Of a stretch of 60,078 bases of DNA, positions 3,769-33,400 are shown in pieces. A model generated the notes under the pieces. The model did not search any database and was not told the origin of the DNA. It saw only the letters and a program-made list of their open reading frames with translations. A program made the position numbers and the translations under genes. This DNA is from a virus: positions 1 through 60,078 of IMG/VR virus record IMGVR_UViG_3300044475_000064. One strand, given 5' to 3'. Numbering within the stretch: the first letter of the stretch is position 1; each line of letters begins with the position of its first letter.

Positions 3769-5400
3769 TTAAGCAGCCATACCGCCCTTATTACGGCGTT
3801 TTGGTCGCTTACCTGATTGTACAGCGTGACTATTGTTCACGAAAGTCTGAGCAGCTTGACGGAATGAGTCAGCGCCTTCCGTATGAATATCTTTAAGCGG
3901 CTCATCACTGAATGTCTGTGTCGATTCAACAAACTTCTTGCGATAGCTATCAAGGTGTAAGATACCTTCCTTACAACCTTCCTCATCGATCATGACCGAT
4001 GACATATAGTTACGTGTTGCACTAATCCCGTGCTGCAGCTCAGAGACACGAGGAACGACTTCAATATGTTTGAAGCCGAGGTTTTCGAGCATTGTGCGTG
4101 GTGAAATGTTGCTGACTTCGCCCTGACGTTCGTGTGCGCCGTCATGAGGCAGGTAGTGTCTGCCCCATATGCAGCCAGTCTGCTCCTGATATTTCTGCAT
4201 CAATCCGACAAAATGAGAGTAAGGCTCGCCCCACCCCTCAAAGAAACCAATAAACCGATGCCATGCGCCAACCTGTTGATGCAGCCACACGGCGCATCCG
4301 TCACCGCTGCCAATATCCCAAAACGAATTGACAGGAATACCAGGTTCAAACGGAACTTTACCTATGCGGCCATCTTTGCGCATCTTAGTCATTTGAACGG
4401 TGTAATAGCAGCCTTTGGTTGACTGTTGGAAAGCCTCGTCAGGTGTGGATGGATATTCCTGCCACATCGACTCATCTTCACCAGCGTAGAAACCATCGCG
4501 CATAGAGATCCACCAAGCACGTTGCTCGATGTCGATAAAGCACTTCATTTCAGCTTCGATGCGGTCAAAATATTCATGCTCTTTTTTAGATATAGCGATC
4601 AGATCTGCATCAACACGGTAGCTTTTATCATCCCACCACGGGAAAAAGTGGAACATGAACTCTTTACCAGTCATACGACGGCCAAGAGATTGCACACGGC
4701 GCGACTGCTGCACCATGTTGTAGAACTCGCCGCCACGACCTTCCGCCGTGGATTCAATGAAGATCAAGCCACGTTCTGCAGCTGGAAGTGCACCGCGCTG
4801 GATCTCCTTTGCTCGATCAGGATAGAGCGCACAGATCTTACCGTATTCAGAGATGTGCAGGTGTGTAAGCGTTCCTGAACGTCCTGACTGAGTTACACGG
4901 ATCTTTGAATTGTTATGCGCGAACTCAAGTGCATCAGCTCTGTTACGGCGTAGCGTGAAGATCGTAAGCAGCATTTCAGGCAGGTTTTCATAAGCGAACT
5001 TGACCTTATCCCCGAAAATTTCCTCTGCATCGTCCTTGGTGTGCGCAATGATCGCCGCCGTGACTGGCTTCTTCTTGTCAGCGAATAAAGCGCAGTCGAG
5101 ATAATAGATTGCAATGAATGTCGTGAAACCGAGCTGACGAGCCTTGAGAATGATATTGCGCTTATGAAAGCGTTTAAGCAGCTTTCTCTGTGCTCTGTTG
5201 GGCTTGAAGTAAACGACACGCTCAGCCTGTTCGCCGTTCGCATCATCTTCGGGCTTCGTTTTGATCTTATAGAGCTGTCCCGAACAAATCCGCCACATCG
5301 GATCTGACAAACACCAAGCGAACTCTTTTGGAGTGCTCGGTACAAACGTAAGCGGCACATCGCCTGGCTTAACTTGTTTAAGATCTTCGGGAATATTCAT
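3769..5400 (-). CDS. terL: Terminase large subunit
   Basis: 543 aa. The ATPase Walker-A-like segment NIILKARQLGFTTFIAIYY is followed by LIFIESTAEG. The C-terminal nuclease-like segment is FWDIGSGDGCAVWLHQ. Length and position are typical of TerL. Confidence 0.85.
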   Translation of the reverse strand: MNIPEDLKQVKPGDVPLTFVPSTPKEFAWCLSDPMWRICSGQLYKIKTKPEDDANGEQAERVVYFKPNRAQRKLLKRFHKRNIILKARQLGFTTFIAIYYLDCALFADKKKPVTAAIIAHTKDDAEEIFGDKVKFAYENLPEMLLTIFTLRRNRADALEFAHNNSKIRVTQSGRSGTLTHLHISEYGKICALYPDRAKEIQRGALPAAERGLIFIESTAEGRGGEFYNMVQQSRRVQSLGRRMTGKEFMFHFFPWWDDKSYRVDADLIAISKKEHEYFDRIEAEMKCFIDIEQRAWWISMRDGFYAGEDESMWQEYPSTPDEAFQQSTKGCYYTVQMTKMRKDGRIGKVPFEPGIPVNSFWDIGSGDGCAVWLHQQVGAWHRFIGFFEGWGEPYSHFVGLMQKYQEQTGCIWGRHYLPHDGAHERQGEVSNISPRTMLENLGFKHIEVVPRVSELQHGISATRNYMSSVMIDEEGCKEGILHLDSYRKKFVESTQTFSDEPLKDIHTEGADSFRQAAQTFVNNSHAVQSGKRPKRRNKGGMAA

Positions 5401-5521
5401 TGTAAATATTATTCAGCGAATCAATGCACTTAATTATGGGGTAATAGCGTGAATAGCACAATTGCGCCGTGAGATACATGGTTTATGTTACACATCGTTA
5501 CAATTGCATAATGGCGTTTAA

Positions 5522-5550
5522 TTGATCGTATCATGCACATGATATATAAT
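5522..5550 (+). promoter_or_regulatory. Sigma70-like promoter of the plus-strand accessory island (TTGATC-17 nt-TATAAT)
   Basis: -35 at 5522-5527 and -10 at 5545-5550, with exactly 17 nt between. Located 55 nt upstream of ATG 5605. Confidence 0.6.
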
Positions 5551-5604
5551 ACAGTCATAAGGTTGACCAATATCAACTAACTATCACTAACAACGGGGAA
5601 ATAT

Positions 5605-6105
5605 ATGTCTATTCAATCAATGCTAAACGAACAAGCACTAGACAATGTTCGTACTGCTGTGAACAACTACCGTCGCTTATCTGCTGCTCACTCTGAATGG
5701 GTGTCATACATGAACCATAAGGCGGTTAAGCGGTTCACTGAATCAGAGATTCCATTTGATGTGATGGATGACGTTCAAAAGGAAAAGTTTAAAGCTAAAT
5801 TCAATAACTGGGTTCACCGTGAGATCGAAAAGCTTGGCGGTGAAGTCGAAGGCTACTGCGTGACGAATGGTCTAATGGTTCATCGTGAGGGAATGGGTAA
5901 GCCGCAATTGCTAAAGATCTCTTTTGCAAAGCTTGAGAATAATGTTGTTGTAGCGACTGTTGAGAGCGCTCGTAATCTAAGTACCCTGCGCTCGTTTGGA
6001 ATACATTATATGACACGCGATGCACTGCGCGATATGCCCGAAGATCCGTATAACAATATGGTATTCAATAAAGCAGCTTTCGCATTATTTGGCTTGAGCA
6101 TCTGA
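5605..6105 (+). CDS. Hypothetical protein (166 aa), first gene of the island
   Basis: ORF with RBS GGGGA 6 nt upstream. No motif recognised. Confidence 0.7.
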   Translation: MSIQSMLNEQALDNVRTAVNNYRRLSAAHSEWVSYMNHKAVKRFTESEIPFDVMDDVQKEKFKAKFNNWVHREIEKLGGEVEGYCVTNGLMVHREGMGKPQLLKISFAKLENNVVVATVESARNLSTLRSFGIHYMTRDALRDMPEDPYNNMVFNKAAFALFGLSI

Positions 6106-6109
6106 TCGC

Positions 6110-6295
6110 ATGAAATCCATCATTCTGCTTTGGGCTGTGTTCAACAGTCCAACTGATCTCACTGTAACTCAGGGCATGGTTGATAACGTGTCCTTCAATA
6201 GCGTGGTTTCATGCGAGGCTTATAAGAAACGCATGGGATATAAAAATAGTAAAGCATTGCAGTTTCGATGCTTACCACAAAGGAAATATGTATGA
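6110..6295 (+). CDS. Small protein with a hydrophobic N-terminus (61 aa)
   Basis: MKSIILLWAVF.. looks like a signal or anchor segment. 4-nt gap to the upstream gene. Confidence 0.5.
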   Translation: MKSIILLWAVFNSPTDLTVTQGMVDNVSFNSVVSCEAYKKRMGYKNSKALQFRCLPQRKYV

Positions 6296-6378
6296 AGTGT
6301 CCGTTATGGTTCGGCAGCATGTTGTTTGCTGCATCGTTCTACATCATTTTAGCTTTTCTCTACAAAATAACCTCATAG
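6292..6378 (+). CDS. Hydrophobic micropeptide (28 aa), putative single-pass membrane peptide
   Basis: ATGA overlap with the upstream stop and RBS AAAGGA. Manual translation gives MKCPLWFGSMLFAASFYIILAFLYKITS. It is below the track size cut-off. Confidence 0.4.
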   Translation: MKCPLWFGSMLFAASFYIILAFLYKITS

Positions 6379-6386
6379 GTGACGTT

Positions 6387-6470
6387 ATGCGCTTAAACAA
6401 AGAACAAAAGTACGGTTTTTCTTTCCTAGCTGTGTATTTCATTTTCATTCTGATTTCTTGGAATTTTTAA
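6387..6470 (+). CDS. Hydrophobic micropeptide (27 aa), putative single-pass membrane peptide
   Basis: RBS AGGTGA. Translation is MRLNKEQKYGFSFLAVYFIFILISWNF. Its stop overlaps the next start (TAATG). Confidence 0.4.
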   Translation: MRLNKEQKYGFSFLAVYFIFILISWNF

Positions 6471-6748
6471 TGCCTGAACAAATTAAAACGGCGCTGCAGG
6501 ATCTCCTTGCAGCGTACTTTGAGATCCAGCTCAGTGAGCTTGGTATTTACCTCTCGATCAGCGGCAATACGAGTGGTTACAACTTAGTTCTAAGTGACCG
6601 CGATCCTGCTGGATCAGTCTATATGACTGACGTTTGGCACAAAACCGACAATCCCAACGATGCTGCTGTGATCGCTATGCGGTTGAGCGACATCGAGGAT
6701 GTCAAAAAGAAACTTAATCAATTTTCACAAGGGCACAAAAATGGCTAA
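6470..6748 (+). CDS. Hypothetical protein (92 aa)
   Basis: ATG 6470 is coupled by TAATG to the upstream peptide. MPEQIKTALQDLL.. Confidence 0.6.
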   Translation: MPEQIKTALQDLLAAYFEIQLSELGIYLSISGNTSGYNLVLSDRDPAGSVYMTDVWHKTDNPNDAAVIAMRLSDIEDVKKKLNQFSQGHKNG

Positions 6749-7046
6749 ATACTTTTGCGATACGTGCAACAAACCTCAGCGCATTGATCCAACTACGCTG
6801 CAGGTTGGTGATGAGGTGAATTTTACTGTTTCGACCATTGGCCGCAGTAAGGCGAGCTTTAAGTCTCGTGCTGGTACGATCACAGCCATTTACGGCGACA
6901 AATGCAGTATCGAGACTGGTCGTGGAAAAAACAAAACGATCATTGTGCGAAGCCTTAGCGAACTCACACCATCAGACGCACCAAGTCCACTGACTTACGC
7001 TTTTGGTGAGTGCAAGTGTGGTCAAGGAGAAGCCAATGGATCTTAA
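6741..7046 (+). CDS. Hypothetical protein with CxxC..CxC (101 aa)
   Basis: ATG 6741 overlaps the upstream gene by 8 nt. MAKYFCDTCNKPQ...GECKCGQGE suggests a small zinc-ribbon-like fold. Confidence 0.55.
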   Translation: MAKYFCDTCNKPQRIDPTTLQVGDEVNFTVSTIGRSKASFKSRAGTITAIYGDKCSIETGRGKNKTIIVRSLSELTPSDAPSPLTYAFGECKCGQGEANGS

Positions 7047-7956
7047 ACAATACACTGGCTCAATCCGCTTTGGTGACGCAAGCATCCACATCAATGCTGA
7101 GGCTAATCTTGGTCGAGGTTATAATCCTGAGCGTGAAGCGTGGGAAGTCAAATACAAGCGTGATGTGTTCAAGCGAATAGTACAGCAACTTAATCGTCTA
7201 GGTTGGACCTGCGCTATACCCGAAGAATATATCAAGAACTACCAAATGTCTTTTGCACGTAATTATCGTGAATGTCGCAAAGGTGATGTACACGGAAAAC
7301 TGGAAATAATTGGACAGCAAATTAAATTTGAAATGTGGCAAAACGTCAATGTTCCGAAGTCTGAGCGAGAAGATGGTAGGGGGCAATTTCTTTACAACAA
7401 AGAGAAGTACGCACCCTATCCGCTACTACTGGAAATGAAGCGTACACGTAACCGCATCAGAAAGTATCTTGAGAACGTCTGCAGCTTCAAATTTGAGCCT
7501 AAAAAGCCTTCACAAATGGAAGTAGGACCAAATCAATTAACTGCTTATGAATTTATCAAGGCACGTTGGGAGGATTGTTGGCATTACAAACCTGAACTTG
7601 GTCGCCGTGATGGTGAGGAGTATGAGTGGAACTCAAAAAGTGCAGATAATGGATCTCTGCATCACGATATGCCTGTTTGGTTCTATGATCGAAAAGGCCG
7701 CTTAAACAAGGGCACGGCGTACTACAACATAAATAATATGTGGTGGGTAATCTCAGGAAAATATGGCTGTCGAAATCTATGTTGTCGAGATCTGTATATT
7801 GACTTACCAAATGATCCACGAGTGAAGAACAATGCTGATAAGCGAGCACGAGCAATTAATAATGAGCTTGGGCAGGCAATTAGTGCTGAAAATTATGAAC
7901 GTGCGATTGTATTACGCGATCTAAAAAGAAAGGATGACCAAGCCCATGTCGTTTAA
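7036..7956 (+). CDS. Hypothetical protein (306 aa) with a C-terminal UVR-like motif
   Basis: ATG 7036 has RBS AAGGAG. The C-terminal ELGQAISAENYERAIVLRDLKRK resembles the UvrB/UvrC (UVR) helical motif. The rest is unrecognised. Confidence 0.65.
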   Translation: MDLKQYTGSIRFGDASIHINAEANLGRGYNPEREAWEVKYKRDVFKRIVQQLNRLGWTCAIPEEYIKNYQMSFARNYRECRKGDVHGKLEIIGQQIKFEMWQNVNVPKSEREDGRGQFLYNKEKYAPYPLLLEMKRTRNRIRKYLENVCSFKFEPKKPSQMEVGPNQLTAYEFIKARWEDCWHYKPELGRRDGEEYEWNSKSADNGSLHHDMPVWFYDRKGRLNKGTAYYNINNMWWVISGKYGCRNLCCRDLYIDLPNDPRVKNNADKRARAINNELGQAISAENYERAIVLRDLKRKDDQAHVV

Positions 7957-8305
7957 AGTACCTGAAAAACACCGCCTGACTAGCGGATCTCTTAAAACCA
8001 AGCCAAACAGCGGTAATAACGGCGCTTTCTCCTTTCTGTTTGGCAACACCAAATTTAATGCCATTGCGAGTGACGGCGATGGTTGGGAACACGTAAGCGT
8101 CACAACACATGGCCGCTGTCCAACATGGGAAGAAATGTGTCGAGTGAAGTCAATGTTTTGGGATGTAGAGGATTGTGTGGTCCAGTACCACCCACCGAAA
8201 AGCCAATACGTGAACAATCATCCGAACTGCCTACACCTGTGGCGACCTATTAACGATAATGTACCGACACCTCCGACTTACATGGTTGGTGTTAAGGGGC
8301 AATAA
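7934..8305 (+). CDS. Conserved phage protein of unknown function (123 aa)
   Basis: The motif GWEHVSVTTHGRCPTWEEMCRVKSMFWDVEDCVVQYHPPKSQYVNNHPNCLHLW matches a widespread phage/prophage family that I recall only as uncharacterised. Alternative start at 7946. Confidence 0.65.
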   Translation: MTKPMSFKVPEKHRLTSGSLKTKPNSGNNGAFSFLFGNTKFNAIASDGDGWEHVSVTTHGRCPTWEEMCRVKSMFWDVEDCVVQYHPPKSQYVNNHPNCLHLWRPINDNVPTPPTYMVGVKGQ

Positions 8306-8535
8306 TGCGCAGTGAAGCACAGAAACGAGCAGACAAGGCGCATGGGGAAAAGATGCGCCGCATCCCTCTAAATTTCAATCGTGAGGACAATCAAGATAAG
8401 ATCCGTATCGCATACCTTGAGACGCAGCCAAACATGACTGCATTCATTAAGGAATTGATTGACCGTGATATGGAATTAAAAGCATTCATGAAAAACTACG
8501 ATGCTGAATGCGAGCAGAAAGGTCTTGCTGGATGA
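8305..8535 (+). CDS. Putative ribbon-helix-helix (Arc/CopG-like) DNA-binding protein (76 aa)
   Basis: RRIPLNFNREDNQDKIRIAYLETQPNMTAFIKELIDRDM fits a beta-strand plus two-helix RHH pattern. ATG overlaps the upstream stop. Confidence 0.4.
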   Translation: MRSEAQKRADKAHGEKMRRIPLNFNREDNQDKIRIAYLETQPNMTAFIKELIDRDMELKAFMKNYDAECEQKGLAG

Positions 8536-8556
8536 CCAAGGAAATGTAGCTAAATG

Positions 8557-8580
8557 ACCCTGCCAAGTGCAGGGTTATTT
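8557..8580. terminator. Convergent rho-independent terminator between the island and terS
   Basis: 7-bp GC-rich stem ACCCTGC/GCAGGGT with loop CAAGT, followed by TATTTGT. It overlaps the terS stop. Confidence 0.55.
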
Positions 8581-9399
8581 GTCATCATCGTTAGGCTTCA
8601 ACGTATTACCAGGAAGTGACCGTAATAGTACCTCAAGCGGATTCTCGGCATCGCCCCTAATCGTCAGTTTGTCATTAAACATGCCCAAGTGACGGGCCAC
8701 ACTAACCAGTGCTTGACCTTGATCCTGAGTCTTTACCTCAAATCCATCCTTAGTCTGTTTCACACCTGCATACAAGGCCTGTGCTTGCGGTGAGAGCTGA
8801 CGTGTATCAGCAAAAAATACATCTAAATTACCCTCACCCCAACATTTCGGGCATTCCTCATGAGGCTGAGCGACTGGGATAAAACCATAGCCACCCTCAT
8901 CAGATGGATATGTTGCTCGATAGTTAGGATCATCCTGCTGTATCGCTTCCTCCTCAGCCGCTACTGCAGCAAACATTTTCTCGTACTCAGCTTCGTCCTT
9001 CCATTGGAATTTATGGTCAATGCCGTGGCAGTGACGGCAGTTCAAACGGCGTACCTGTTGCAGCTCGTTAGGATCTGCGATAGCAATGTTCCATAGGCGC
9101 TCAAGTACCTTATCCGCTGTAATCTGAGTACGAACAGATCGGTTTTCCATCTGCTCCTGAATAGCTTTGTAAACGAGTGGTTTGGTCTCAGGATTAGATA
9201 CCCAACCAAAGGACCGAACACGAGCAACAGACTCAGTATATCCTGCTGCCATAGCCGCACGTCGGGGATTCAGATCGATCAGATACTCTTTGATAAATAC
9301 CTCATCACGTGGAGTCATTTTTTGCTCAATGCTCTCATTTCCCGTATTTTTTTCCTTAGACTCTTGAGTTGATTTTCCTTGTTTTTCCGCTTTAGTCAT
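8575..9399 (-). CDS. terS: Terminase small subunit (Terminase_2-like) with a C-terminal double CxxC extension
   Basis: FIKEYLIDLNPRRAAMAAGYTESVARVRSFGWVSNPETKPLVYKAIQEQ matches the Terminase_2 N-terminal HTH signature. NCRHCHG and CPKCWGEG lie downstream. Start 9399 is preferred (RBS GAGGG) because ATG 9420 sits at the predicted transcription start. Confidence 0.8.
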   Translation of the reverse strand: MTKAEKQGKSTQESKEKNTGNESIEQKMTPRDEVFIKEYLIDLNPRRAAMAAGYTESVARVRSFGWVSNPETKPLVYKAIQEQMENRSVRTQITADKVLERLWNIAIADPNELQQVRRLNCRHCHGIDHKFQWKDEAEYEKMFAAVAAEEEAIQQDDPNYRATYPSDEGGYGFIPVAQPHEECPKCWGEGNLDVFFADTRQLSPQAQALYAGVKQTKDGFEVKTQDQGQALVSVARHLGMFNDKLTIRGDAENPLEVLLRSLPGNTLKPNDDDK

Positions 9400-9426
9400 G
9401 ATTTTTCCCTCGCTTGTCATATTGTC

Positions 9427-9455
9427 ATTGTAGAAATGGGGATTGCAAAATGCAA
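9427..9455 (-). promoter_or_regulatory. Sigma70-like promoter upstream of terS (TTGCAT-17 nt-TACAAT)
   Basis: Read on the minus strand: -35 at 9455-9450 and -10 at 9432-9427, 17-nt spacer. Confidence 0.5.
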
Positions 9456-9497
9456 ATAATCAAGGAAGCTATTAGATTATATTTTGGATATTAGAAT

Positions 9498-9534
9498 AAA
9501 AAAAACCGAGTACAGACGTTGAAACTGTACTCGG
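9498..9534 (-). terminator. Strong rho-independent terminator (minus strand) upstream of the terS promoter
   Basis: 10-bp stem CCGAGTACAG/CTGTACTCGG with a 9-nt loop, followed on the minus strand by T8 (A-run 9498-9505 on plus). A second 7-bp hairpin lies at 9540-9560. Confidence 0.75.
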
Positions 9535-9588
9535 CGAAAGACTGACAACAAGGTCAGTCGGGGATTGGATATATTCTAAATGCTGTAA

Positions 9589-9646: not shown

Positions 9647-10177
9647 ATGCATCAACCAACTGACATCGTTACACCTGACGATCTTTATAACTTTATCCGT
9701 CAGTCAGCAGTTTCAGAAGAATTAGCAACGGGCATCAAGTTACTACGCCGTGCTGCAGATACAATTGCATGGAATAATTCAGAGCTTTATCGCCTTGAAG
9801 ATAAATTAGAAAGTTTAGACGGCGATAACCAAGGGCAAACCAATTTTGATGAACAATGGCAAGCTGCAGGTGAGAAATTGGCAACTGCACTTGGTAGTCC
9901 AGTAAATTTATCGTTTGATCAGATTCTACAAGCGATCATCGAACTACGAGAGTTCAAGGAACAATATGATGAGCCTTGCGATAGAGCATGTGGATCAGTT
10001 GCAGACGGCAACGCCTACAGTGAAACAGGTAAAGCTGTAGATCCTAATGACTGGGCAAAACAAGTAACTAACTTTGCGCACACGGTTTATGGCTTCTCAC
10101 TAGCTTCTGATTCACCACATAGCGGTTATCTTAGAACTATGGCGAAGGACATCATTAATACATCACCTGTAAAATAG
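9647..10177 (+). CDS. Hypothetical protein (176 aa) in a stand-alone, moron-like cassette
   Basis: ORF with its own promoter and terminator, opposite in orientation to both neighbours. No motif recognised. Confidence 0.7.
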   Translation: MHQPTDIVTPDDLYNFIRQSAVSEELATGIKLLRRAADTIAWNNSELYRLEDKLESLDGDNQGQTNFDEQWQAAGEKLATALGSPVNLSFDQILQAIIELREFKEQYDEPCDRACGSVADGNAYSETGKAVDPNDWAKQVTNFAHTVYGFSLASDSPHSGYLRTMAKDIINTSPVK

Positions 10178-11717: not shown

Positions 11718-12714
11718 CCTTGGATGCGAGATCCCAACTACACATATACAAATTTTCAAACTGGTCGGCTGACATTGGATTGTTATCGTTTGGCGCAACA
11801 CCAAGCTCATATTCAAGCTGCTCAAGTGCAACCTGATTTGCTGATTTTGGTTGGAAAATCATCTTCACACCATCCAACATGCAAGAAAATGGCAAGCCAT
11901 CTTCACGGCGACCATATACGCGCCCATCTTCAAAACGATCTACAATGCCATATCCTTCAAACTTTCCATCTAGCTCTCCGTGACTGTTTCCATCCTTGAT
12001 CACGTAATTCACAATATCAAAACTGACGTAAACACGAGCACCCTTTTCGATATGCGTCACACCCTCTGCAGCAATCTGAAACATACCCGATCCAGTGTGG
12101 CACATATCTGCAAAAACCTGCTCCAATCCGCTTGCAGTTGTAATCAACTTGGGAAATGATTTGCTCCAACGTTGTTCAGAAAAATGTTTGGTACGGATTC
12201 GATTGAAAACAGGCTGATTTAGTCCAGTCATCACCCTCATTTGATCACGTTTCCATTGTGGCCACTGGCTAACCGTTTCCTCACACTTGTCGAGGTACTG
12301 CAGTAGTGTAGGCGGCTGACCGATTGGCGGTTTCATCATCTCCCCACCGTTGTCGGTGTATCCAAGGCGTTCAAGTTGCCATTTCAATGATGCAATTTGT
12401 TGGTTTTGTGCATTGAAGCGCTCACCTTGTTCTCTAAATTGCTTACTGATTTCACCCCAGCGAGTGATAGCATGGTTCTTTTCATCCCGACACATTTGAG
12501 CTTTTGAATTAGCTTCATCAATTTCTGCCTGACGGTGCTGCCATTGTTCCCATAACTGCTGCTTGATCCATCCTGAATAATTCCCATTTGACATCATCGT
12601 GCATTTATCGTTCGGATGTGTTTTTGCATAATACTGCTCAAATTGTTCACTTGGTTTATTCATTGCCCATATACTCCGCTGCTGTCGTTGTCGCTGTTTC
12701 TGCCGTTTGTTCAT
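11704..12714 (-). CDS. Hypothetical protein (336 aa) with an N-terminal coiled-coil-like region
   Basis: ATGA overlap with the upstream gene. No family recognised. Confidence 0.7.
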   Translation of the reverse strand: MNKRQKQRQRQQRSIWAMNKPSEQFEQYYAKTHPNDKCTMMSNGNYSGWIKQQLWEQWQHRQAEIDEANSKAQMCRDEKNHAITRWGEISKQFREQGERFNAQNQQIASLKWQLERLGYTDNGGEMMKPPIGQPPTLLQYLDKCEETVSQWPQWKRDQMRVMTGLNQPVFNRIRTKHFSEQRWSKSFPKLITTASGLEQVFADMCHTGSGMFQIAAEGVTHIEKGARVYVSFDIVNYVIKDGNSHGELDGKFEGYGIVDRFEDGRVYGRREDGLPFSCMLDGVKMIFQPKSANQVALEQLEYELGVAPNDNNPMSADQFENLYMCSWDLASKDGEG

Positions 12715-13577
12715 TGAGGATCTACCTCAGTCATTTCTACTAATTGCTGAAAGTTTTTAACTTCGCTCGTAAGATCTCGTAATGCACGTTTCAATGCCTG
12801 TTGACACCGCTTCACCTGCCCGTCTTTTGAAAGCATCTGTTTTTGCAGATCCAGTGCTTGACGAATATCCCAAGTGTTCGACCCTGCAGGCAGACCAAGA
12901 CACTCGCAAAGGCCATGTTGCAACTTTTCGAGATCCTGCCTTTCAGTCTCAAGTATTTTTTGCTGACGCTCGGCATGATGGATTATATCTGTCGCACCGA
13001 TCTGTTTTTGAAGTTCCTCAGTGCGGAAATCTAATTTTCTCTGCGCTTGGTCACGGCGCGATAAAGCCATCGCAAGATCATCACCGTACTTTTTAGAGAT
13101 TGCTCTCCCTGTACGGATCTCAATGCCATGCGTGTAAGCTTGCGCTCGTTGTGAGCGATTCACGCCATCAATCACCAGCTTGATCCAAAAGTCTTTCGGT
13201 AGATCATTGGCTATTGGTATCAGTGTTGGGCCCTTCGCCATACGCCAACCGTTCTCGCTGCGGACGATCAATCCGCATCCTTTCGGAATATCATCTTTAG
13301 TGATGAGACCTTGTGGCACAGCAAAGATCACGCCTGATGCGTATTTTAGATAACTTTGCCACTTACCCTTTGTGATGTCTGATCGGAAGTCAGAAACAGA
13401 AATCTTGCACTCATAAGCGAGTGGTTTGAAATTGCTATATGACTTCGGTATAGAAAAAACATCAGGACGTGGTGATCCTGCAGGACCAAGTTGCATATCC
13501 GTCCAAATTATTCGATCTGTGTTCTTACCCAAATGCTCTGCTAAGTCATTTGCTAGTTCATCATGTCCCCATTTCAC
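12711..13577 (-). CDS. PD-(D/E)xK-type nuclease-like protein (MmcB-like N-terminal domain) with a helical C-terminal half
   Basis: SPRPDVFSI..(22 aa)..AYECKISVSDFRSD gives a D..E-x-K arrangement, as in MmcB-family proteins. Confidence 0.5.
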   Translation of the reverse strand: MKWGHDELANDLAEHLGKNTDRIIWTDMQLGPAGSPRPDVFSIPKSYSNFKPLAYECKISVSDFRSDITKGKWQSYLKYASGVIFAVPQGLITKDDIPKGCGLIVRSENGWRMAKGPTLIPIANDLPKDFWIKLVIDGVNRSQRAQAYTHGIEIRTGRAISKKYGDDLAMALSRRDQAQRKLDFRTEELQKQIGATDIIHHAERQQKILETERQDLEKLQHGLCECLGLPAGSNTWDIRQALDLQKQMLSKDGQVKRCQQALKRALRDLTSEVKNFQQLVEMTEVDPQ

Positions 13578-15622: not shown

Positions 15623-16711
15623 TTACTCACAAAGCCCATAAATTGATGAGCATGAAAAATTCCCTTCATCAATCGCAGTGATCAGATCAAATTGCTTACC
15701 ACCGCGTGAGGTTTTTGACCAAGCTACATGGTCATATACTCCGTGGCCACGTTGTTCGTCTGATGTAAAAAATGTTGCTGATTGCCTTCTTGAAACGATA
15801 GAGACAAGTCTCTCCCATTCAGCAATCCGTGTAATTTCATCAGGAAATCTCTTAGCAATCTCAGATAATTCCGCCTTGCGTGCATGGATGCATGGCATAC
15901 ACCCAACACGACCCATTCCCATCTTGTAAAGCGGATTAGGATCAATGCCGTGTTTTTTATGCATATCAAAGCAATCTTGAGCTGTCCAACTTAGGATTGG
16001 GCGATAGTTGATTAGACCTGATCCACCAAGATCCTCAATCTCAGTCAATTTTGACCGAGATTCAGATTCATCTGCGCGAACTCCCTGCCATGACCAAACC
16101 TCGTCATGCAGATCCAAAAGCGGCATGATTACCTGGAATTGAATAGGTACACGCTTTAATTCCTGAGAGCAGAACCGTGCTTTAGTTGATGGAAAACGTC
16201 CTTTCCAAAGACATAGATCAAGGAATGGATTTCCTGTCGGAACAAGGAGATCAGACGCTCGCTGAACAATTTGATCAGCAATTTCAGGCTCAATAGGTTT
16301 ACGCGCTGGAGTCCATACCCATTTACCACCGTCTGTCTCAATAGCCGCACTCTGATAGATTTCGGATGGTCTTGCAGGCTCACTGACAGGCTTTAACGCT
16401 TCATCAACATCAGTATCTTTCTTCCAATTCCACTCACCATCAAAGCCATTGACAAAATAGTCAAACCATGTGGTGAGTACATTGTTACGCTTACGCTCTA
16501 TCTCTACAGAAAAATTAGCACGCACCCACTGAATGTTAATTTTCAGCTTGTCTGCTAAATAGCGCACATAGTCATAAGTCATTTGATGCTCATTACCCGT
16601 ATCAGCAAAAACAGCGTCAAACTCAACACCACGCTCTATGGCGAGCAGTAGCATCGCTGTTGAGTCCTTTCCGCCTGACAGGGAAATCACATTCTTTTTT
16701 GTATTATCCAT
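15623..16711 (-). CDS. PAPS-reductase-family (PP-loop ATP pyrophosphatase) protein with a large internal insertion
   Basis: VISLSGGKDSTAMLLLA (SGGxDS PP-loop), VFADTGNEH, FCSQELKRVP and C-terminal GCMPCIH match the PAPS reductase/DndC-like family pattern. About 100 extra residues lie between the N- and C-terminal blocks. Confidence 0.7.
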   Translation of the reverse strand: MDNTKKNVISLSGGKDSTAMLLLAIERGVEFDAVFADTGNEHQMTYDYVRYLADKLKINIQWVRANFSVEIERKRNNVLTTWFDYFVNGFDGEWNWKKDTDVDEALKPVSEPARPSEIYQSAAIETDGGKWVWTPARKPIEPEIADQIVQRASDLLVPTGNPFLDLCLWKGRFPSTKARFCSQELKRVPIQFQVIMPLLDLHDEVWSWQGVRADESESRSKLTEIEDLGGSGLINYRPILSWTAQDCFDMHKKHGIDPNPLYKMGMGRVGCMPCIHARKAELSEIAKRFPDEITRIAEWERLVSIVSRRQSATFFTSDEQRGHGVYDHVAWSKTSRGGKQFDLITAIDEGNFSCSSIYGLCE

Positions 16712-17889: not shown

Positions 17890-19050
17890 ATGGGGAATAA
17901 CATGGCACTAAAACTTGTGACTCCTGATCAGCCATTATTGATCAAGAGTATCATCTTCTATCTATATTGTGATCCTGGTATCGGGAAAACTTCACTTTCG
18001 CATACTGCAGACAAACCAATTTGCTATGACTTTGATAAAGGTGCTCATCGAGCTGGTGCGCTACGTCGCGGTACTGTAGTTCAGGTTGAGAACTGGCTTG
18101 ATGTAGCTGATCAAACCGTACAGGATCTTGAGCCGTACAACACGATTGTATGTGATACAAACGGCGCAATGCTTGACTGTATCAAAGCTCATTTGCAAAA
18201 AAACCCTCAGAATCGCCAGTTTGATGGAACATTGACGATTAAAGCTCAGGGCTTAGCGACTAAAACTTTTTCCGATGTCGTTAATTTTTGGCTATCACTT
18301 GGGAAAGATGTCGTATTCATCGCCCATGCCATTGAGGAAGAAGTCGGCAAAGATAAGATCAAAGTAATGCGACCTGACATCGCAGGTCGAAACCGTCACT
18401 GGTTGTATCGTATTGCCGATGTCATGGGATATATGAGTAATACAACAAATAAAGAGGGTAATATCCTTCGATTCATCCGCTTTAATCCTGGTACAAATCA
18501 TCACGCCAAAAACTCAGGTCAGCTAGGCGATGCAAACGGTGATGTATGGATTCCTGACTTGATGCAGAATCCGACATTTTTAGCGGATCTAATCAAACAA
18601 GCAAAAGATCACATCAATACGATGACACCTGCACAGATCTCAGAAGCGAAAGCAGTTGATGATCTACGTGTATTTACTCAGAACTGTGAGGAAGTAACTT
18701 ACACCAGTGAGCTGAATCAACTCACAGAATCACTGCGCCTTGATAAAGAGCATCGCTATTACAAGCAAATGCGACAAGTCCTGTATAAAAAAGCGATGGC
18801 GATGAACTGTAGTTACGATGAAGAAAAACGTCGTTGGCTTGAGCCTCCTGAGTTTATCGGTATCACTGATAAACAGCGTGATGAGCTGCAGGATCTCCTT
18901 ACTAAACAGAAAATGGATGTAAAAGCATTCTGCGAAGCCAATAACCTTGAAACTTTACTGCAGATCCATGCAAGTAAATTTAATGACTGTAAGGCATTCA
19001 TCCTGAATGGTTGCAGACAAGAGCAATATCAGGAGAATGACAATGCCTAG
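17890..19050 (+). CDS. AAA_24/Sak4-like RecA-fold ATPase with a C-terminal extension
   Basis: Walker A is YCDPGIGKTS and Walker-B-like is TIVCDTNG. The layout resembles phage AAA_24 ATP-binding proteins. Alternative start at 17902 (RBS GGGGA). Confidence 0.6.
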   Translation: MGNNMALKLVTPDQPLLIKSIIFYLYCDPGIGKTSLSHTADKPICYDFDKGAHRAGALRRGTVVQVENWLDVADQTVQDLEPYNTIVCDTNGAMLDCIKAHLQKNPQNRQFDGTLTIKAQGLATKTFSDVVNFWLSLGKDVVFIAHAIEEEVGKDKIKVMRPDIAGRNRHWLYRIADVMGYMSNTTNKEGNILRFIRFNPGTNHHAKNSGQLGDANGDVWIPDLMQNPTFLADLIKQAKDHINTMTPAQISEAKAVDDLRVFTQNCEEVTYTSELNQLTESLRLDKEHRYYKQMRQVLYKKAMAMNCSYDEEKRRWLEPPEFIGITDKQRDELQDLLTKQKMDVKAFCEANNLETLLQIHASKFNDCKAFILNGCRQEQYQENDNA

Positions 19051-19525
19051 TCAAGATTTTGATTTTGCACGTCGTAATGACTACCTGAATGAGCTTCGTG
19101 CAGGTGTGATCGAGCAAAAGCAATCGTTACGTGAAAAAATTGAGATAGCACTTGCTGAGTTCGAGGCAAGTGGTGGAAGTATAAATGAAATTCCATCAAA
19201 TCCTCGTGTTCCACGTCAGCCATGCCCTAACCCTGAGCCGTACCCGAAGCGGAAGAATCCAAAGCCGTTTGAACACTACAAGTACAATACTGTCCTCCGT
19301 GACTGGTTATGTGCAGTCGAGGGGCGTGCATCGAAACTCGCCATAGAAAGTAACTACTCTGAGCCTTGGATCTCAGGTCGCCGCCACGGTTTTTTTCAAT
19401 TGCTTCTCATAGATTATGAAGTGTTGAAAAAGTGCATGGATAAGATCGAAAAGTTTGAAAACGAAACAAAGCTACGCGAATTAGCTGAAAAGTATGCAGG
19501 TGATAAAAATGACCACAAAAACTAA
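19043..19525 (+). CDS. Hypothetical protein (160 aa)
   Basis: ATG 19043 has RBS AGGAG and overlaps the upstream stop. Confidence 0.6.
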   Translation: MPSQDFDFARRNDYLNELRAGVIEQKQSLREKIEIALAEFEASGGSINEIPSNPRVPRQPCPNPEPYPKRKNPKPFEHYKYNTVLRDWLCAVEGRASKLAIESNYSEPWISGRRHGFFQLLLIDYEVLKKCMDKIEKFENETKLRELAEKYAGDKNDHKN

Positions 19526-26155: not shown

Positions 26156-26232
26156 TGGTTGCGAGAGTTGGATTTGAACCAACGACCTTCGGGTTATGAG
26201 CCCGATGAGCTACCAAGCTGCTCTATCACGCA
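26156..26232 (-). tRNA. tRNA-Met (anticodon CAT), initiator-like, CCA encoded
   Basis: Cloverleaf folded by hand, 77 nt: TGCGTGA TA GAGC AGCTTGGTA GCTC A TCGGG CTCATAA CCCGA AGGTC GTTGG TTCAAAT CCAAC TCTCGCA A CCA. It has a GGG/CCC anticodon stem and A11:T24 like bacterial tRNA-fMet. There is one T:T mismatch in the acceptor stem. Confidence 0.8.
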
Positions 26233-26236
26233 ATAT

Positions 26237-26312
26237 TGGTGCAAAGAAATGGGATCGAACCATTGACCTGCGGATCTTCAATCCACCACTCTACCGACTG
26301 AGTTATCTTTGC
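26237..26312 (-). tRNA. tRNA-Phe (anticodon GAA), CCA encoded
   Basis: 76 nt: GCAAAGA TA ACTC AGTCGGTA GAGT G GTGGA TTGAAGA TCCGC AGGTC AATGG TTCGATC CCATT TCTTTGC A CCA. All stems pair. Confidence 0.85.
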
Positions 26313-26318
26313 ATTTTG

Positions 26319-26396
26319 CTCGATGGGCCGGACTTGAACCAGCGACCTCCAAAGGGCTTTATACCTTTGCTACTCTACCGACTGAGCTACCAACGA
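26319..26396 (-). tRNA. tRNA-like gene with a non-canonical anticodon arm (possible pseudo-tRNA or unusual decoder). No CCA encoded.
   Basis: The acceptor stem (one T:T mismatch), D-arm (GCTC AGTCGGTA GAGT) and T-arm (GCTGG TTCAAGT CCGGC) are canonical. The anticodon arm is GCAAAGG-TATAAAGC-CCTTTGG, a 6-7 bp stem with an 8-nt loop. Confidence 0.55.
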
Positions 26397-27408: not shown

Positions 27409-30400
27409 TTAATTGTAGATAGATGGTGACTGATCCTCAACCAAACGATCACGCAGCTTGTTGTTATAGCGCATACCACCTACGGCGTTGTCAGCACCTT
27501 TATCACGGTTTTTACGTGATTGAGAAATACTGCGAGGTGTGATCTTCTGCTCAGGATTCTTCTCATTGAACTTGTCAATTTTCTCAGCAAGTTTATCGAG
27601 CTTCTTCTCATCACCCTCTTGGTTGGCCTTATAGTAATCATCCATGATGCTCTTGCGCTCTTTGATGATCGTTTGTTGCATGTTGAAGCTGGCGTTATTG
27701 GTCTGATACTGTTCCGCAATACCTGCAGGTGTAAAACCAAGTGCCTGTTTGATCACATCAGAAGTGGTCACATCCGTAACAGTATCACCACGCATATTTT
27801 TCGCGCCTTCCGTTTCATAGCGATAGGCTTTCATCGGATCTTTAAGCATCTTCGGCATCATGGTCTCAATACCACGATAAACCTCACCCTTGCCGATATA
27901 ACTCAAACCACGGGCAAATTGAGCACCAATTGCAGGTACAGCACCAAGCAACTGGCTTTGCCAAAATTGTAAAGCTTCCTCACCTTCTTTCTCGCTGTCA
28001 GGTGATCTAAACCAAAGGTCAGCCATACCAACCGAAGCGGACAATGATGTGCCTGTTACATAACCAGGTACGCCGTGCAGTGCCAATCCTGCCAATTTTG
28101 GACCAATTGATTTTATCATTGCTTTTTTAAGTTCTTCTTTTGGATCTTCACCGTCATCCATGAACATCCCTGCCATCACCATCGCAATACCAAACAACCA
28201 TGTACCTGTGATACCTGCGTTCAACATCATCATGCCTGTAATACCAGCAAGCTGAGAGAATGCCTCCTTACGGACTTCCTTAGTCTCACCATTCAATGCT
28301 TGGTGAGTATCACGGAATAGGCGATAGAGCATGTTGATTTGGAAATTACGGAATACGAGTAAGATCTTCATCGTGTCATTGTGCATCAGTCGAGGGCGCG
28401 ATGTATTTGAATAATCAAAATGCGTTTTCCAAGTCAGATCGCCTGCTTTTGTCACTGCAGCATCATGGCTAAGACCTTTTTTGCGAGCAAGACGGTATGC
28501 AGCAAGGAATGTGACCTCACGGTTTAGACGTTCAGCATGATGGAAGCCCCAAGAAATGATTTTCATTGCACGCTCACGGGCAGCACTGTACTCAACACCA
28601 GTCTCACCAACACCTGCAAGGTCATGCCCTTGTGTACGCTCGATCACGCCTGCCTCATAACCGTCAGCCATTGCCTTGCGTTCTTCTGCAGTCAAACCAC
28701 TTGAACGCTCTGCAAAACCCTTACCTTTGGTGAAGTCAACGAGCGCATTGGTCAGCTCCTTACCTGCACGAGCAATACCATTCAGACCGCCTGCATATGC
28801 GCCAAGGATCGGCACACCCATGATCGGTGTCTGAAATAAGTTCATGATCGCAGCTTTTGGACTACCTGCGAGATACCATACGAATGCGAAACTTGATGCC
28901 CATTGAGCCAATGCGCCACCAGTCGGTGACATCACAAACTTATGGCGCTTCTCCATTTCATTAACGATCAAGCTGCTACGCTTAGGATTCTTGGTTTCAC
29001 GAGCATCATCCCGTGCTTGATCAAGTGCATCCTCTAGATCCATGCTGTGCGCCATACGTGCCAACTGGTGAGATCCGTGGAACATATGACTACCGAAAGC
29101 ACGGACGGCATCGGCGTTATAGCCTTCACGCCCTTTACGATGGATACGAGCCTTACGCACTGACATATCAGGCAATGACTCAAGATAACGTTGCCATACT
29201 TCATCCTTGACCTGCTCAGCGTTCGGCAGATCAGCAAGAATATCTTCAACATCGGCAACAAAATTTGGATCTACTGCTTTTCGCTCAGCTGCCCCATCAA
29301 TCAAAGCACCTTCTTCAACTTTATAATTTGCATCCTTTCTCATTTCCTCAGCAAAACGGCGCTGTTCGGTCGGATCTTCAAAGCGAGAGAACGATACTAC
29401 TTCCCCAGTCTTGGCATCGCGTACGGTGACAAATAGCGATCCAAACCGTGCTAATGGGAAATATGGTCCTTGGAGACGCTGCGTTTCAAACTGCTTGCGT
29501 AGGCGCGTCATACGAGCCTTACGATTCCATGCAATTTTAGTCTTAGCATTATTAAGAGCACGGTCAGCTGCAGCAATTGCATCATCACGCTCCTGTCCTT
29601 GCAATCCCTCATCAGTGATGCGCTCCATTTCACGGCCATGCTCACGCTCAGCTTTTTTGATACGGACATTGATTGCCTTTTCCATATTAGCAAGCAGTAT
29701 CTCATCAAAGGCATCAGCGAGATCCGTGTACGTGTCACGCACCTTTTTATAGATCTCTTTTGCTTCTGCAGACAATGGATCAAAACGTTCTTTCAGTACG
29801 TCATAGGCTTCTTCACGCTTGTCATCAAGTTCCTGTTTCAAGGTCAGTTCAGCTCTGAGATTTGCATTCAGATTAGGATTGGCCAAAGATCTTTTTTCTT
29901 GTGGAGTCATCAAGCTTTGGAACGGCATGGACGGATCAACCTGGTTTAAGGTCGATTCATGCATAATATCCATCAGCTCACGGTTTTCGTCCTTGTTCTT
30001 GATGCGATATTTCAACCACTCTTGAGCAACGGCATCGGTCTTAGCGTGCCATTTATTGCGCATGGTATCCATTTTGTCCTTGACGCGCAGATAAACCTTG
30101 GCAGACGGTAGATCACTCGCCATTTCATTGAGCATCTGGCGTAATGGAATCAAACCTAGCGCACCGTTTGTCATCAACTTGGTTAGTTTGTCAGATGGTA
30201 ATTTTTTGGCTTCATCCCACCACTGTTTAAGCTTCATTGCATACTCATCTTCTGAAACAGGGCCGAGATCATCATCAGCACGGCTGAAACGGATGTCAGG
30301 ATTGGTCGGATCGAATGCTCCAGTGTTATCAGTGGCAGATTTAATTTGCTCAGAATCAAAAACAGATAACGTTTGATGACCATCATCGGAAAAAATAATA

Positions 30401-33400
30401 GCGTCATATCCAAGTTCTTTAAGCTTAGGTACTAAATCGTTTGCCCAATGCTTATTTTTAAACTCATGTTTTGTTGAGTTCCAATCGAAATACCCATCCT
30501 TAGCCTGGTTCACAACACTCTGACCAAAGCGGCTGCTTGCTTGGATACCTGCCAAAACTTTCAAACCATGATCAGTATTTAGATCAAGTGGATTTTCAGA
30601 ACGCACATAGATCGGCTTAATACGAGCATCAGGATAAATTGGATTGATGTCTCCATAATCCATCATGTCCTGAATATCACGAGCGCTTAGGCGAGATCCA
30701 TCCTGACGGTTCACGTACTCATTACCATCAATTTCATAGATATTACCGTCATTGTCTTGATACACTGGATCGCTACGCTTACGCCCACCACCAGCACCTT
30801 GCGCATAACGATCAGCAATATCCATATCGTCAGTGGTATGAATCAGACCACCTGCCTTATCCTTATCCCATTGTGACCAGTTATCTCGTGTGCCGTGATA
30901 GCGAATTTGTGGTTTCCCATCCTCATCCACCACCTTACTGTCACCAAACCACTTTTTAAATTCAGGTGTGTTTGTCTGATCTTCACGGCTAAAACGAGAG
31001 CCTGATCCATGACTCGCATTGAAAGCAATCAGATAATTTTCATAGACTGTTTTCTCCTGATCCACGATCTTGAATCCTGCATCCGCATCAGGAATATAAC
31101 CCTCTTTGGTCTTGTCACCATTGCCACCAATAACAACGCCATCCTTACCAAGCAGCCAAACATAGCTATCAGTTTTCGGCGCAAAGCGCTTATCAAAACC
31201 AGTTCTTCGGCTATATGGCTGATCAGAATATTCGCTTATTGATAAAGCATTGACGCTTACACCCTCTCTAAAGCCATCTGTCAAAATTGGTTCACGGTTA
31301 GATTCACCACCTCTGAAATCAACATGGATGCTCTTATATTTTTTAAAGAACTGTTTTTTAGTGAGTGGCTTATTTGATGTGTCAGCCTTGCTGAAACGGC
31401 GCATACCATTTGCATCGCGATTGCCAAGCGTATTGACCATACGCTCAGCCAAGGCGAGTACATCATTCGCATTCAGATTGAGATTTAAGCCAAGCTTATC
31501 CACTGCCCATGCTTTGACGGCGGCAACGATGCGATTGACAAGAGTTTGCACACCTGGTCGCTTGTTCTGCGCACGAGCTGCAACGGTGATCAGATACGGA
31601 AGATACTCATCCTGACGAGCAGCTGCATCTGTCTCACGCTCAGCAAGGCGTTTTGCCTCAAGTGCGATAGGATCTTTAGCAGCCACCAAGCGATCAAACT
31701 GATCCATCAGGTTCTTGTAGGCAGTCGGCTTCATCACGCCCTGCATACCAGCGTGACCACCGAGCTCATGCAGAAACACTGGAACAATGGTGTCAGGTGT
31801 TAGAGCGTTTGCAACGAGCGTTACGTTCCCATCCTGCGCATAACCCTCGACACCTGCAATACGGAAACTGTCATCAATGCTCAGAATGCCTTGATCCTCA
31901 AGACGAGTGATCACGTCCTTGCCGAAACGCTCAATCAGACGATTGCGGACATCGGCAACAGTTATGCCAGTACCCTTCCGATCACCTTGGCTGAATAGTA
32001 GTTTTTCCTGCTGTGCGATGATGCGAGCACGATCACCTTCTGATTTAGGATCATAGGTTTTGATCTTTAATCCTGCATCACGTAGTACCTGCAGCGCATC
32101 TTTATCCATACCCTTTGGCACAACAGCGGTATTGAACTCGCTGAATTGAACGGCACGCTGAGCCTTCGCCTCAAAGTACGCCGTTGGTAGGTTTGCAAGG
32201 TAACTGGTCAGGTCGGCAATGATCTTGCGTGACTCAGGTGTGACCTTAAATGCCTCACGAATGCCTTTCTGCCCCTCCGCGATTGCAGATCCAGCATCAT
32301 TGAGATAGCCCCAACCGTTCGTGTCGTATTTGTAGAATGGTTTGAGACGTTCAAGCGCATCCTCAAATACCTTGGACGATTCCTCTTTTAGCTTCTCCAT
32401 TTCAGCCTCAGTGACGATCTGATCACGGCGAGATTGGATGTCTTTGAGCGTTTTCATTTCATTGGCGTAAGCAGAGCGTGCGCTACCTGCACCATAGAAT
32501 GTGCCCTCACCTGCCTGTAGCTGCTGAGTCATTTCAGACACGACGTTCTCAAGCGTGTAAGGCAGATATTTTTTGTTTCCTGCATTGGTAAAGCCTTTAA
32601 ATAAGGTCTTACCAGTCACCATCGAATTGAATTTATCGGTTGCCCATTTCTCGAAAGCTGCGCGTGTTTTTTCATTACGCATCTTTTCCGAAAGATCGCT
32701 TCTCAATTGAGCATAATCGTAACCACCACTTTTGCGGTAGTTGTCTGCTTTCATAGCTAAGTCATCAAGTGCATACGGCTTGAGCGTACCATCCTCGTTG
32801 TAATAACGTGCCTTTGCACGAGCCACGCCTTTTTGATTGATCTCACGCATAACCTCCTTTGCATCATCAGGCAAAGCAGGATCAATTGGCTTCTCGTACT
32901 CAGCGATGCGAGACTCAAAATACTTTTTAGCAATGGCAGCAAATTTTGGATCTTGTGGCCATGAGAAGCGAGATCCTTCCAGTTTTGCAGCGTTCTTGAT
33001 GTATGGATTGACCTTAGCCTGTTTCAATTTTGGTGCTTTGCCGATCTCATTGAGATATGCAAGCTGCATTGCATCTGATCGAACAAAGTTTTCAGCTCCG
33101 TCTGTACCACTCGCCTCATCGAGACTCGGCAAGCGAAGTCCGTTTGCATTCTGTTCAAGCTCGCTGAGCAGCGCATTAAATTTCTTCTTGTCTAGCTCAT
33201 AGCTTGCCCGTGGCTGACGTGGAGAATAAATATCTGCATCGAACGTGCGGATCTTTGAATCCTCAAGAAGCTTCGGATCTGCCAATAGGGTGACTTCACC
33301 AAAGCCTGAGAAGTCAGACACATCAGAACGAGCGACGGCGATAGATGGTGCAGCAAGCCCACCTAGATCGTTCGCAGCCAAAATGTTCGATGCGCTCAGG

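Follow-up and report, generated by a model that had tools for sequence, protein, structure and literature searches.

The window analysed here is a stretch of viral DNA of 60,078 nucleotides (nt), IMG/VR record IMGVR_UViG_3300044475_000064. The genes for the small and the large terminase subunit, terS and terL, both lie on its minus strand and are parted by plus-strand genes, an arrangement described in an earlier note on this DNA and borne out by Pfam and PHROGs. Nine plus-strand genes, A to I, are supported between terL and terS (Table 1), instead of the ten open reading frames (ORFs) claimed in that note. The gaps at the successive junctions from A to I are 4, -4, 8, -1, -8, -11, -11 and -1 nt. 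Overlaps of 1-11 nt thus occur at six of the eight junctions and short spacers of 4 and 8 nt at the other two, which matches the chaining of ORFs by ATGA- and TAATG-type overlaps reported before. The guanine-plus-cytosine (GC) fraction of the whole block is 0.433 as compared to 0.446 for the genome, at the 30th percentile among segments of equal size. The segment at 6100-6500, previously called visibly AT-rich, does fall within the lowest 5% of 400-nt segments (GC 0.392 against 0.446 for the genome), but the bias is mild and the composition of the block as a whole is ordinary. The arrangement is well above chance level. The block is an autonomous transcription unit of non-structural accessory genes, reversed inside the packaging module.

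Table 1. Features of the terL-terS region, in order of position in the window. The last column gives the number of genomes, out of the 13 compared, that carry the gene.
Feature	Position	Strand	Description	Genomes (of 13)
terL	3769..5400	-	phrog_2; 63% amino acid (aa) identity to the terL of SopranoGao and PEp14	
candidate terL promoter	5433..5461	-	TTGTGC-17-CATAAT; 8/12 match, under the scan threshold; putative, divergent from the island promoter	
island promoter	5522..5550	+	-35 TTGATC at 5522-5527, 17-nt spacer, -10 TATAAT at 5545-5550	
candidate operator	5529..5544		perfect palindrome TATCATG-CA-CATGATA within the promoter spacer	
gene A	5605..6105	+	166 aa; C-terminal domain of about 85 aa is a rare family	6
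gene B	6110..6295	+	61 aa; signal-peptide-like N-terminus, two conserved Cys	11
gene C	6292..6378	+	28-aa single-pass hydrophobic peptide, hydropathy 2.09	13
gene D	6387..6470	+	27-aa single-pass hydrophobic peptide, hydropathy 1.99	9
gene E	6470..6748	+	92 aa; backbone gene	12
gene F	6741..7046	+	101 aa; phrog_3728, E = 8.8e-22	11
gene G	7036..7956	+	306 aa; phrog_7674; in the window and its closest relative, L007	2
gene H	7946..8305	+	119 aa; DUF7694 (PF24746), phrog_7839	13
gene I	8305..8535	+	76 aa, basic; phrog_4223, E = 2.5e-6	13
bidirectional intrinsic terminator	8552..8580		AAATGACCCTGC-CAAGT-GCAGGGTTATTT; overlaps the terS stop codon	
terS	8575..9420	-	Pfam Terminase_2, E = 7e-24	

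The window begins and ends with an identical direct repeat of 127 nt (1-127 and 59952-60078), and the portal gene is divided over both ends; this marks the window as a complete circular assembly, about 59.95 kb in length. The genome is that of a complete Bcep22/PEp14-like podophage of about 60 kb. It shares with this group the homology and order of terL, portal and capsid genes, a size of about 60 kb, a giant virion protein and split terminase genes. The identity of its terL is 62-64% to that of the Klebsiella phages SopranoGao, LASTA and ZX1 and the Erwinia phages PEp14 and Pavtok, and 49-58% to that of Serratia Parlo, Pseudomonas Itty13 and Burkholderia JC1. No nucleotide match to the region was obtained by megablast against 50,697 phage genomes or by blastn against E. 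coli genomes. Scans with terL in IMG/VR and with protein I in metagenomes returned only three loci, all distant, and two loci, respectively. A scan of GTDB genomes with terL yielded a single Rhodobacter contig, 46% identical, and the host was therefore not assigned. The nearest annotated homologues of F are in temperate phages of Acinetobacter baumannii (37-39% identity), that of G is in an A. rudis prophage (58%) and that of H is an A. baumannii protein (60%). These Acinetobacter matches are a weak hint on the host or on the gene pool.

To the window were added twelve relatives from public assemblies, obtained with proteins G and I as handles and by a scan for the H family, giving a comparison set of 13 genomes. 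The terL of the relatives, designated here by L numbers, is 65-96% identical to that of the window. A reversed operon of 1.7-3.3 kb occupies the terL-terS gap in all 13 genomes. The operon is conserved, and its stable backbone (B, C, D, E, F, H and I) is combined with cargo at defined slots. The swappable cargo comprises A, which follows the promoter, G, which lies between F and H, and further genes in the relatives. Comparison of the window with L007 shows how sharply these slots are bounded. The two genomes are 88% identical over terL, promoter and leader, as far as the first start codon, where an unrelated 70-aa gene in L007 takes the place of A and B. C, D and E are again 82% identical, two different genes stand in place of F, identity returns over G, H and I (79%), and an additional 103-aa gene lies just before the terminator. 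The DNA homology stops exactly at gene boundaries.

Other relatives carry cargo of their own. A gene for an Nmad5 (nucleotide-modification-associated) protein lies between E and F in L188 (3392-3958), a Mu Gp12-like protein of about 170 aa is among the cargo, and a lipoprotein-like SPFH/Band_7 protein with a 60-aa partner is inserted between H and I in L181 (4988-5988). A 263-aa cargo protein of L191 (2474-3265) weakly matches the PADLOC candidate PDC-S02 (E = 8e-6). The cargo slots are variable; the operon itself is at a fixed site in all 13 genomes. The idea that the ORFs probably form one functional unit is not supported, given the exchange of single genes at sharp junctions between close relatives and the presence of G in only two of the genomes.

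Transcription of the operon appears to start at a single site. Genome-wide, there are three sigma-70 matches of at least 10 out of 12 positions, and the island promoter, a near-consensus TTGATC-17-TATAAT as stated before, is the best of all and the sole intergenic one. Its -10 hexamer is kept in 13/13 genomes; the spacer is shorter in L186. Sixteen of the 17 nt of the spacer form a perfect 16-bp palindrome that is single-copy in the genome, the other matches having three mismatches, which is the chance level. The palindrome is likewise kept in all 13 genomes. In L183 it has undergone a symmetric double substitution (TATCAC..GTGATA) that preserves the dyad, and in L186 a 2-nt deletion moves the -10 element and leaves the palindrome intact. 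No operator-like palindrome was seen in the intergenic regions of SopranoGao and PEp14. A dyad in the promoter spacer is the classical layout for a dimeric repressor that occludes RNA polymerase. Since the palindrome is unique to the island promoter, a dedicated regulator can be argued for, and the palindrome is probably the operator of such a dimeric repressor.

The convergent terminator between I and terS is confirmed. Its hairpin has 12-nt arms and folds with -18.7 kcal/mol when read on the plus strand and with -15.6 kcal/mol when read on the minus strand. As an A-tract precedes the hairpin and a T-tract follows it, the terminator can act both ways. The hairpin is kept in 13/13 genomes, and a compensatory change in the stem in L191 (ACCCGC/GCGGGT) supports selection on it.

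On the other side of the island promoter, a candidate promoter of terL points away from the operon. Both of its hexamers lie in invariant columns of the promoter-region alignment, which comprises 7 genomes, and its -35-like hexamer is about 60 nt left of the island -35. Between the divergent promoters lies a direct repeat, GTTACA-CATC-GTTACA (5487-5502), which is largely conserved among the relatives. It has no second copy in the genome, the remaining matches being at chance level, and a regulator acting on either promoter or on both may bind there. At the other end of the block, translation of terS is likelier to start at the second Met, at 9399, as the alignments to relatives start at residue 8. 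Upstream of terS on the minus strand, a strong hairpin is followed by a T8 run (9534-9506; CCGAGTACAG..CTGTACTCGG TTTTTTTT), and a sigma-70-like site, TTTGCA-18-TACAAT (9456-9427), directly precedes the start codon. With the upstream hairpin and T8 run, the promoter-like site and the terminator at the stop codon, terS (8552-9540, minus strand) looks like a stand-alone transcription unit. Directly upstream of terS there is also a 176-aa gene on the opposite strand (9647-10177, plus strand) with no family match; a plus-strand gene of 161-204 aa is called upstream of terS in most relatives, with DNA homology shown for L007 only.

The two smallest genes of the operon, C and D, are real genes, as shown by the in-frame excess of synonymous over nonsynonymous codon differences among relatives. 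For C the ratio is 82/45 in its own frame, compared with 11/116 and 2/125 in the two alternative frames, and for D it is 38/34 against 3/64 and 3/67. A 57-60-aa ORF in the D frame that overlaps C was rejected as a gene, the substitution patterns favouring C and a short D. At about 1760-1850 of L179, D is apparently replaced by an unrelated hydrophobic ORF of about 25 aa (METIFAVILIIIGINGTLAIHFGIL; alignment judged by eye), which would be an analogous and not a homologous replacement. B is possibly exported.

Among the proteins upstream of G, the C-terminal domain of A has 25 relatives, all unannotated, in an exhaustive HMMER search of 1.84 billion representatives; most are stand-alone proteins of about 90 aa. 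E has no match in Pfam, PHROGs or NCBIfam. In relatives F is mostly found in versions of 60-70 aa, and in the window its core, which the sequence pattern suggests to be an SH3/KOW-like barrel, is flanked by CxxC and CxC. Homologues of F are encoded downstream of cI in temperate Acinetobacter phages.

The recognisable pieces named in the earlier note were a UVR-like motif, a widespread phage domain and a terminal ribbon-helix-helix (RHH) protein. Pfam confirms the first two, in G and H. The UVR motif of G (PF02151) scores 22.3 bits against a cut-off of 21.5, and the family profile of G matches the UvrB C-terminus with E = 2.4e-6. The AlphaFold2 (AF2) model of G, with a mean predicted confidence (pLDDT) of 94, consists of an N-terminal alpha/beta domain, a Tudor/SH3-like barrel and the C-terminal UVR helical hairpin (residues 267-305). 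Foldseek found nothing significant for it in the PDB; among viral models the sole significant match is an uncharacterised member of the family of G itself, and the other resemblances are to Tudor/SH3-like sub-domains only (E >= 0.03). G was considered as a UvrB/UvrC excinuclease and rejected, since only the C-terminal motif matches and the UvrB helicase and the UvrC GIY-YIG and Endo V domains are absent. The family counts 157 significant clusters in a large protein database. In 80 IMG/VR loci with a member of it, none of H, I, E, C, A or B lies within 5 kb, and an F-like gene is upstream of G in one. Recurrent ORF families near G (86 loci) include cI-like repressors, RdgC, YqaJ, C5-methyltransferase and DUF5131; such a neighbourhood is that of the early-left region of temperate phages.

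H matches DUF7694 with 107.8 bits (cut-off 27) and belongs to a family of at least 3870 clusters, typically 55-65% identical. Residues W47, H49, S51, W61, H82, H97 and W99 are invariant and some Cys residues are nearly so; His49, His82, His97, Trp47, Trp61, Trp99 and the near-invariant Cys residues suggest a possible catalytic or metal site. The AF2 model of H (pLDDT 83) has no Foldseek match in the PDB (best E = 0.12). Structure prediction thus gave confident models for G and H, and no solved fold was matched by either. Only one of 80 viral H loci carries other genes of the operon, and that one is a close relative of the window phage. Recurrent ORF families near H (80 loci) include SF2 helicases and VRR-NUC proteins, in replication modules. 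A literature search on DUF7694, PF24746 and the PHROG identifiers found no papers. As G and DUF7694 are each widespread apart from the other, the block is a mosaic of independent genes and not one system.

I presents the opposite case. Its family has 25 clusters, every one in the clade of the window, and tblastn against phages found no match. The assignment of I as an RHH protein, the third of the recognisable pieces, is not confirmed, with one weak RHH_7 match (E = 0.021) among 19 family members. As in RHH autorepressors such as P22 Arc and Mnt, or CopG, a small basic protein is encoded within the operon and a dyad-symmetric site overlies the core promoter; the candidate operator lies in the promoter spacer of the operon of I itself in 13/13 genomes. 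The window differs from them in that the RHH fold of I is unconfirmed and the operator is a candidate. Within the operon, I alone is a candidate for binding DNA, and it is confined to the clade just as the palindrome is. The most economical reading is therefore that I possibly autoregulates the operon through the palindrome.

The block had also been put forward as the kind of island that typically carries morons, superinfection exclusion or defence or anti-defence cargo. No match at E <= 0.1 was obtained when eight ORF translations of the window were scanned against PADLOC-DB v2, a set in which a 96-aa ORF of the D frame (6180-6470) was used instead of C and D. Neither Pfam nor PHROGs nor NCBIfam gives an anti-defence annotation for the window proteins, and NCBIfam gives no matches to them. 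Defence cargo is thus not borne out for any scanned protein of the window. Among 20 non-structural ORFs scanned, neither an integrase nor a recombinase turned up, which makes prophage-borne defence less likely. An anti-defence or host-takeover role is possible for these proteins.

Bcep22-like phages characteristically have terS and terL far apart, as stated for JC1, Bcep22 and BcepIL02 (PMC9144972). The split is also seen in the genomes of JC1, Itty13, Parlo, SopranoGao and PEp14, and the contents of the gap differ: twelve genes in JC1, two in Itty13, one same-strand gene in Parlo and a single opposite-strand Xre-type helix-turn-helix (HTH) gene in SopranoGao and PEp14. The window resembles Lessievirus (Bcep22, BcepIL02, JC1) in that the terminase genes are parted by hypothetical genes; its terL is 49-63% identical to that of PEp14, SopranoGao, Parlo and JC1. 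Unlike in the window, the intervening genes of the Bcep22-like phages are on the terminase strand; in the window they form an operon that runs the opposite way, with a promoter, an operator-like palindrome and a bidirectional terminator to itself. With Lastavirus (SopranoGao, LASTA) and Pavtokvirus (PEp14) the window shares a small opposite-strand gene that runs towards the 3' end of terS and away from terL, but their HTH gene stands alone, where the window has nine genes, and is without detectable similarity to I.

The morons of lambdoid phages, described by Hendrix and colleagues, are autonomous promoter-gene-terminator units among the genes of an unrelated module. The block is like them in having its own promoter (5522-5550) and terminator (8552-8580). 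It is unlike them in its native composition, its clade-wide conservation and its many genes, and prophage expression is not indicated. A moron is expected to be absent from close relatives; here the close relatives have the operon, and a one-gene gap occurs only in more distant genera. Early accessory operons of temperate phages (cI-proximal early-left and nin-like regions) carry homologues of G, F and H, but in the window these genes are embedded in a packaging module, with no integrase among the ORFs scanned.

Given the observed anatomy, conservation and mosaicism of the block and the absence of known homologues, it is probably an accessory operon typical of the lineage, driven by the host RNA polymerase, that occupies a plasticity site of the wider group and consists of independent genes. 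Its expression would most likely be early. The host RNA polymerase would start at the sigma-70 island promoter, back to back with the terL promoter region, early in infection. A to I would then be read as one message with translational coupling, ending at the bidirectional hairpin that also closes terS. A repressor bound to the spacer palindrome, for which I is the candidate, would afterwards switch the operon off. The small exported or membrane peptides B, C and D might act in envelope modification or superinfection exclusion, by analogy with Imm and Sp of T4. All of these are very small exported or membrane proteins, and probably early; the likeness is one of analogy only, B, C and D having no sequence similarity to Imm or Sp. 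F, G and H would be cytoplasmic and could serve host takeover, modulation of DNA metabolism or counter-defence. Because their homologues elsewhere lie in early replication, recombination or cI-proximal operons, roles in host takeover and DNA metabolism appear likeliest.

Several points weigh against this interpretation. Early timing and promoter activity are read from consensus and conservation only. No RHH or other DNA-binding fold could be established for I; a profile search of PDB sequences found nothing relevant for it, and the same searches with G, H and I recovered only the UVR motif of UvrB. The repressor gene could lie elsewhere or belong to the host. For none of the nine proteins did PADLOC, NCBIfam, Pfam or PHROGs supply a functional annotation other than the UVR motif and DUF labels. 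Finally, E, F, H and I are co-conserved across the clade, and a joint function of these four is possible.

Of the alternatives, the one that survives best, yet appears unlikely, is that the block mainly regulates packaging and late genes. Control of the divergent terL promoter would fall to I, as to the Xre-type HTH gene at the corresponding site of Lastavirus and Pavtokvirus, and strong rightward transcription would block read-through from terS to terL until I silences the island promoter. In both settings a small opposite-strand gene, the HTH gene in SopranoGao and PEp14 and I in the clade of the window, lies directly against the 3' end of terS. Within about 90 bp, the island promoter stands back to back with the conserved hexamers upstream of terL, with the unique GTTACA-N4-GTTACA repeat between them, and terS, which has a promoter-like site and terminators to itself, resembles a separate unit. 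I is, however, not homologous to the HTH protein, the intergenic regions of SopranoGao and PEp14 lack the palindrome, and the terL promoter is a putative one with an 8/12 match only. Moreover, a lone regulator leaves seven or eight further conserved genes unexplained.

That the nine genes make up one integrated defence, superinfection-exclusion or anti-defence system is quite improbable. Translational chaining behind a single promoter and terminator and the presence of the small exported or membrane proteins B, C and D would suit such a system, as would the SPFH/Band_7 lipoprotein and the weakly PDC-S02-like 263-aa protein (E = 8e-6) among the cargo of relatives. Against these stand the lack of any PADLOC match in the window, the lack of an integrase or recombinase among the 20 non-structural ORFs, and gene-by-gene turnover among close relatives, with G missing from 11/13 genomes. 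For each of G and H, 80 other viral loci show no linkage of the two to one another or to E or I, and one G locus only has an F-like neighbour.

In the boldest reading, the co-conserved E, F, H and I, together with the operator, would be an undescribed phage module. DUF7694 would be a new-fold, possibly metal-dependent enzyme directed at DNA or nucleotides, and I would turn the module off, freeing the terL promoter; G would dock through its UVR hairpin on host UvrB or UvrC, disabling or redirecting nucleotide excision repair. As a whole this proposal is quite improbable.

That the block is a moron in the strict sense, a foreign island acquired only recently, is very unlikely. Its own promoter and terminator, the opposite orientation, the single gene at the same site in Lastavirus and Pavtokvirus and the mild AT-richness at 6.1-6.5 kb are as such an island would have them. 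The idea is largely refuted by the presence of the operon in 13/13 genomes, down to 65% terL identity, and by its GC, which at 0.433 (genome 0.446) ranks at the 30th percentile. With the site shared by all 13 genomes and native GC, the block is not a recent foreign insertion; it is single genes, G and A among them, that seem to have been exchanged of late. Weakest is a toxin-antitoxin-like pair, H being the toxin and I an RHH-like antitoxin that represses its own synthesis on the palindrome: the two are adjacent with a TAATG overlap in 11/13 genomes, I is small and basic and the promoter holds a palindrome, but the families are of unequal size (at least 3870 clusters against 25), an I homologue is present in 0/79 unrelated H loci, other genes come between H and I in L181 and L191, and the promoter is 2.4 kb upstream of H, so that this reading is extremely unlikely.

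Read as an accessory operon of independent genes, the locus reveals a structured site of plasticity in the terS-terL gap of Bcep22/PEp14-like podophages, where promoter, operator-like palindrome and terminator are fixed and single genes are exchanged at defined junctions. Because the frame is fixed and the junctions enclose single genes, the site offers a convenient natural landing pad in which accessory or counter-defence genes can be sought. The leads are DUF7694, which is widespread, conserved and fold-less; phrog_7674, also fold-less, with its UVR motif; and the candidate autoregulatory switch beside the terL promoter. Current understanding is not overturned: an ordinary phage feature, a plasticity region in a lineage known for split terminases, is filled with uncharacterised genes.

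Some further features lie outside the terL-terS region. In a leftward non-structural operon, an MmcB-like protein is encoded at 12711-13577 and a PAPS-reductase/QueC-like protein at 15623-16711, both on the minus strand; PAPS reductase has been described as a moron of Bcep22-like phages (PMC9144972). A 172-aa ORF on the plus strand (19007-19525) matches the RNA-polymerase-binding domain of SutA below threshold (24.7 bits; cut-off 29.3) and may be an RNA-polymerase-binding early protein. Three tRNA genes are found on the minus strand at 26156-26396, for Met(CAT), Phe(GAA) and a low-scoring Phe call with the unusual anticodon AAA. The minus strand also carries an ORF of 4445 aa at 27409-40746; gp69 of JC1, a related phage, has been annotated as a giant virion protein of the DarB-like kind (PMC9144972).

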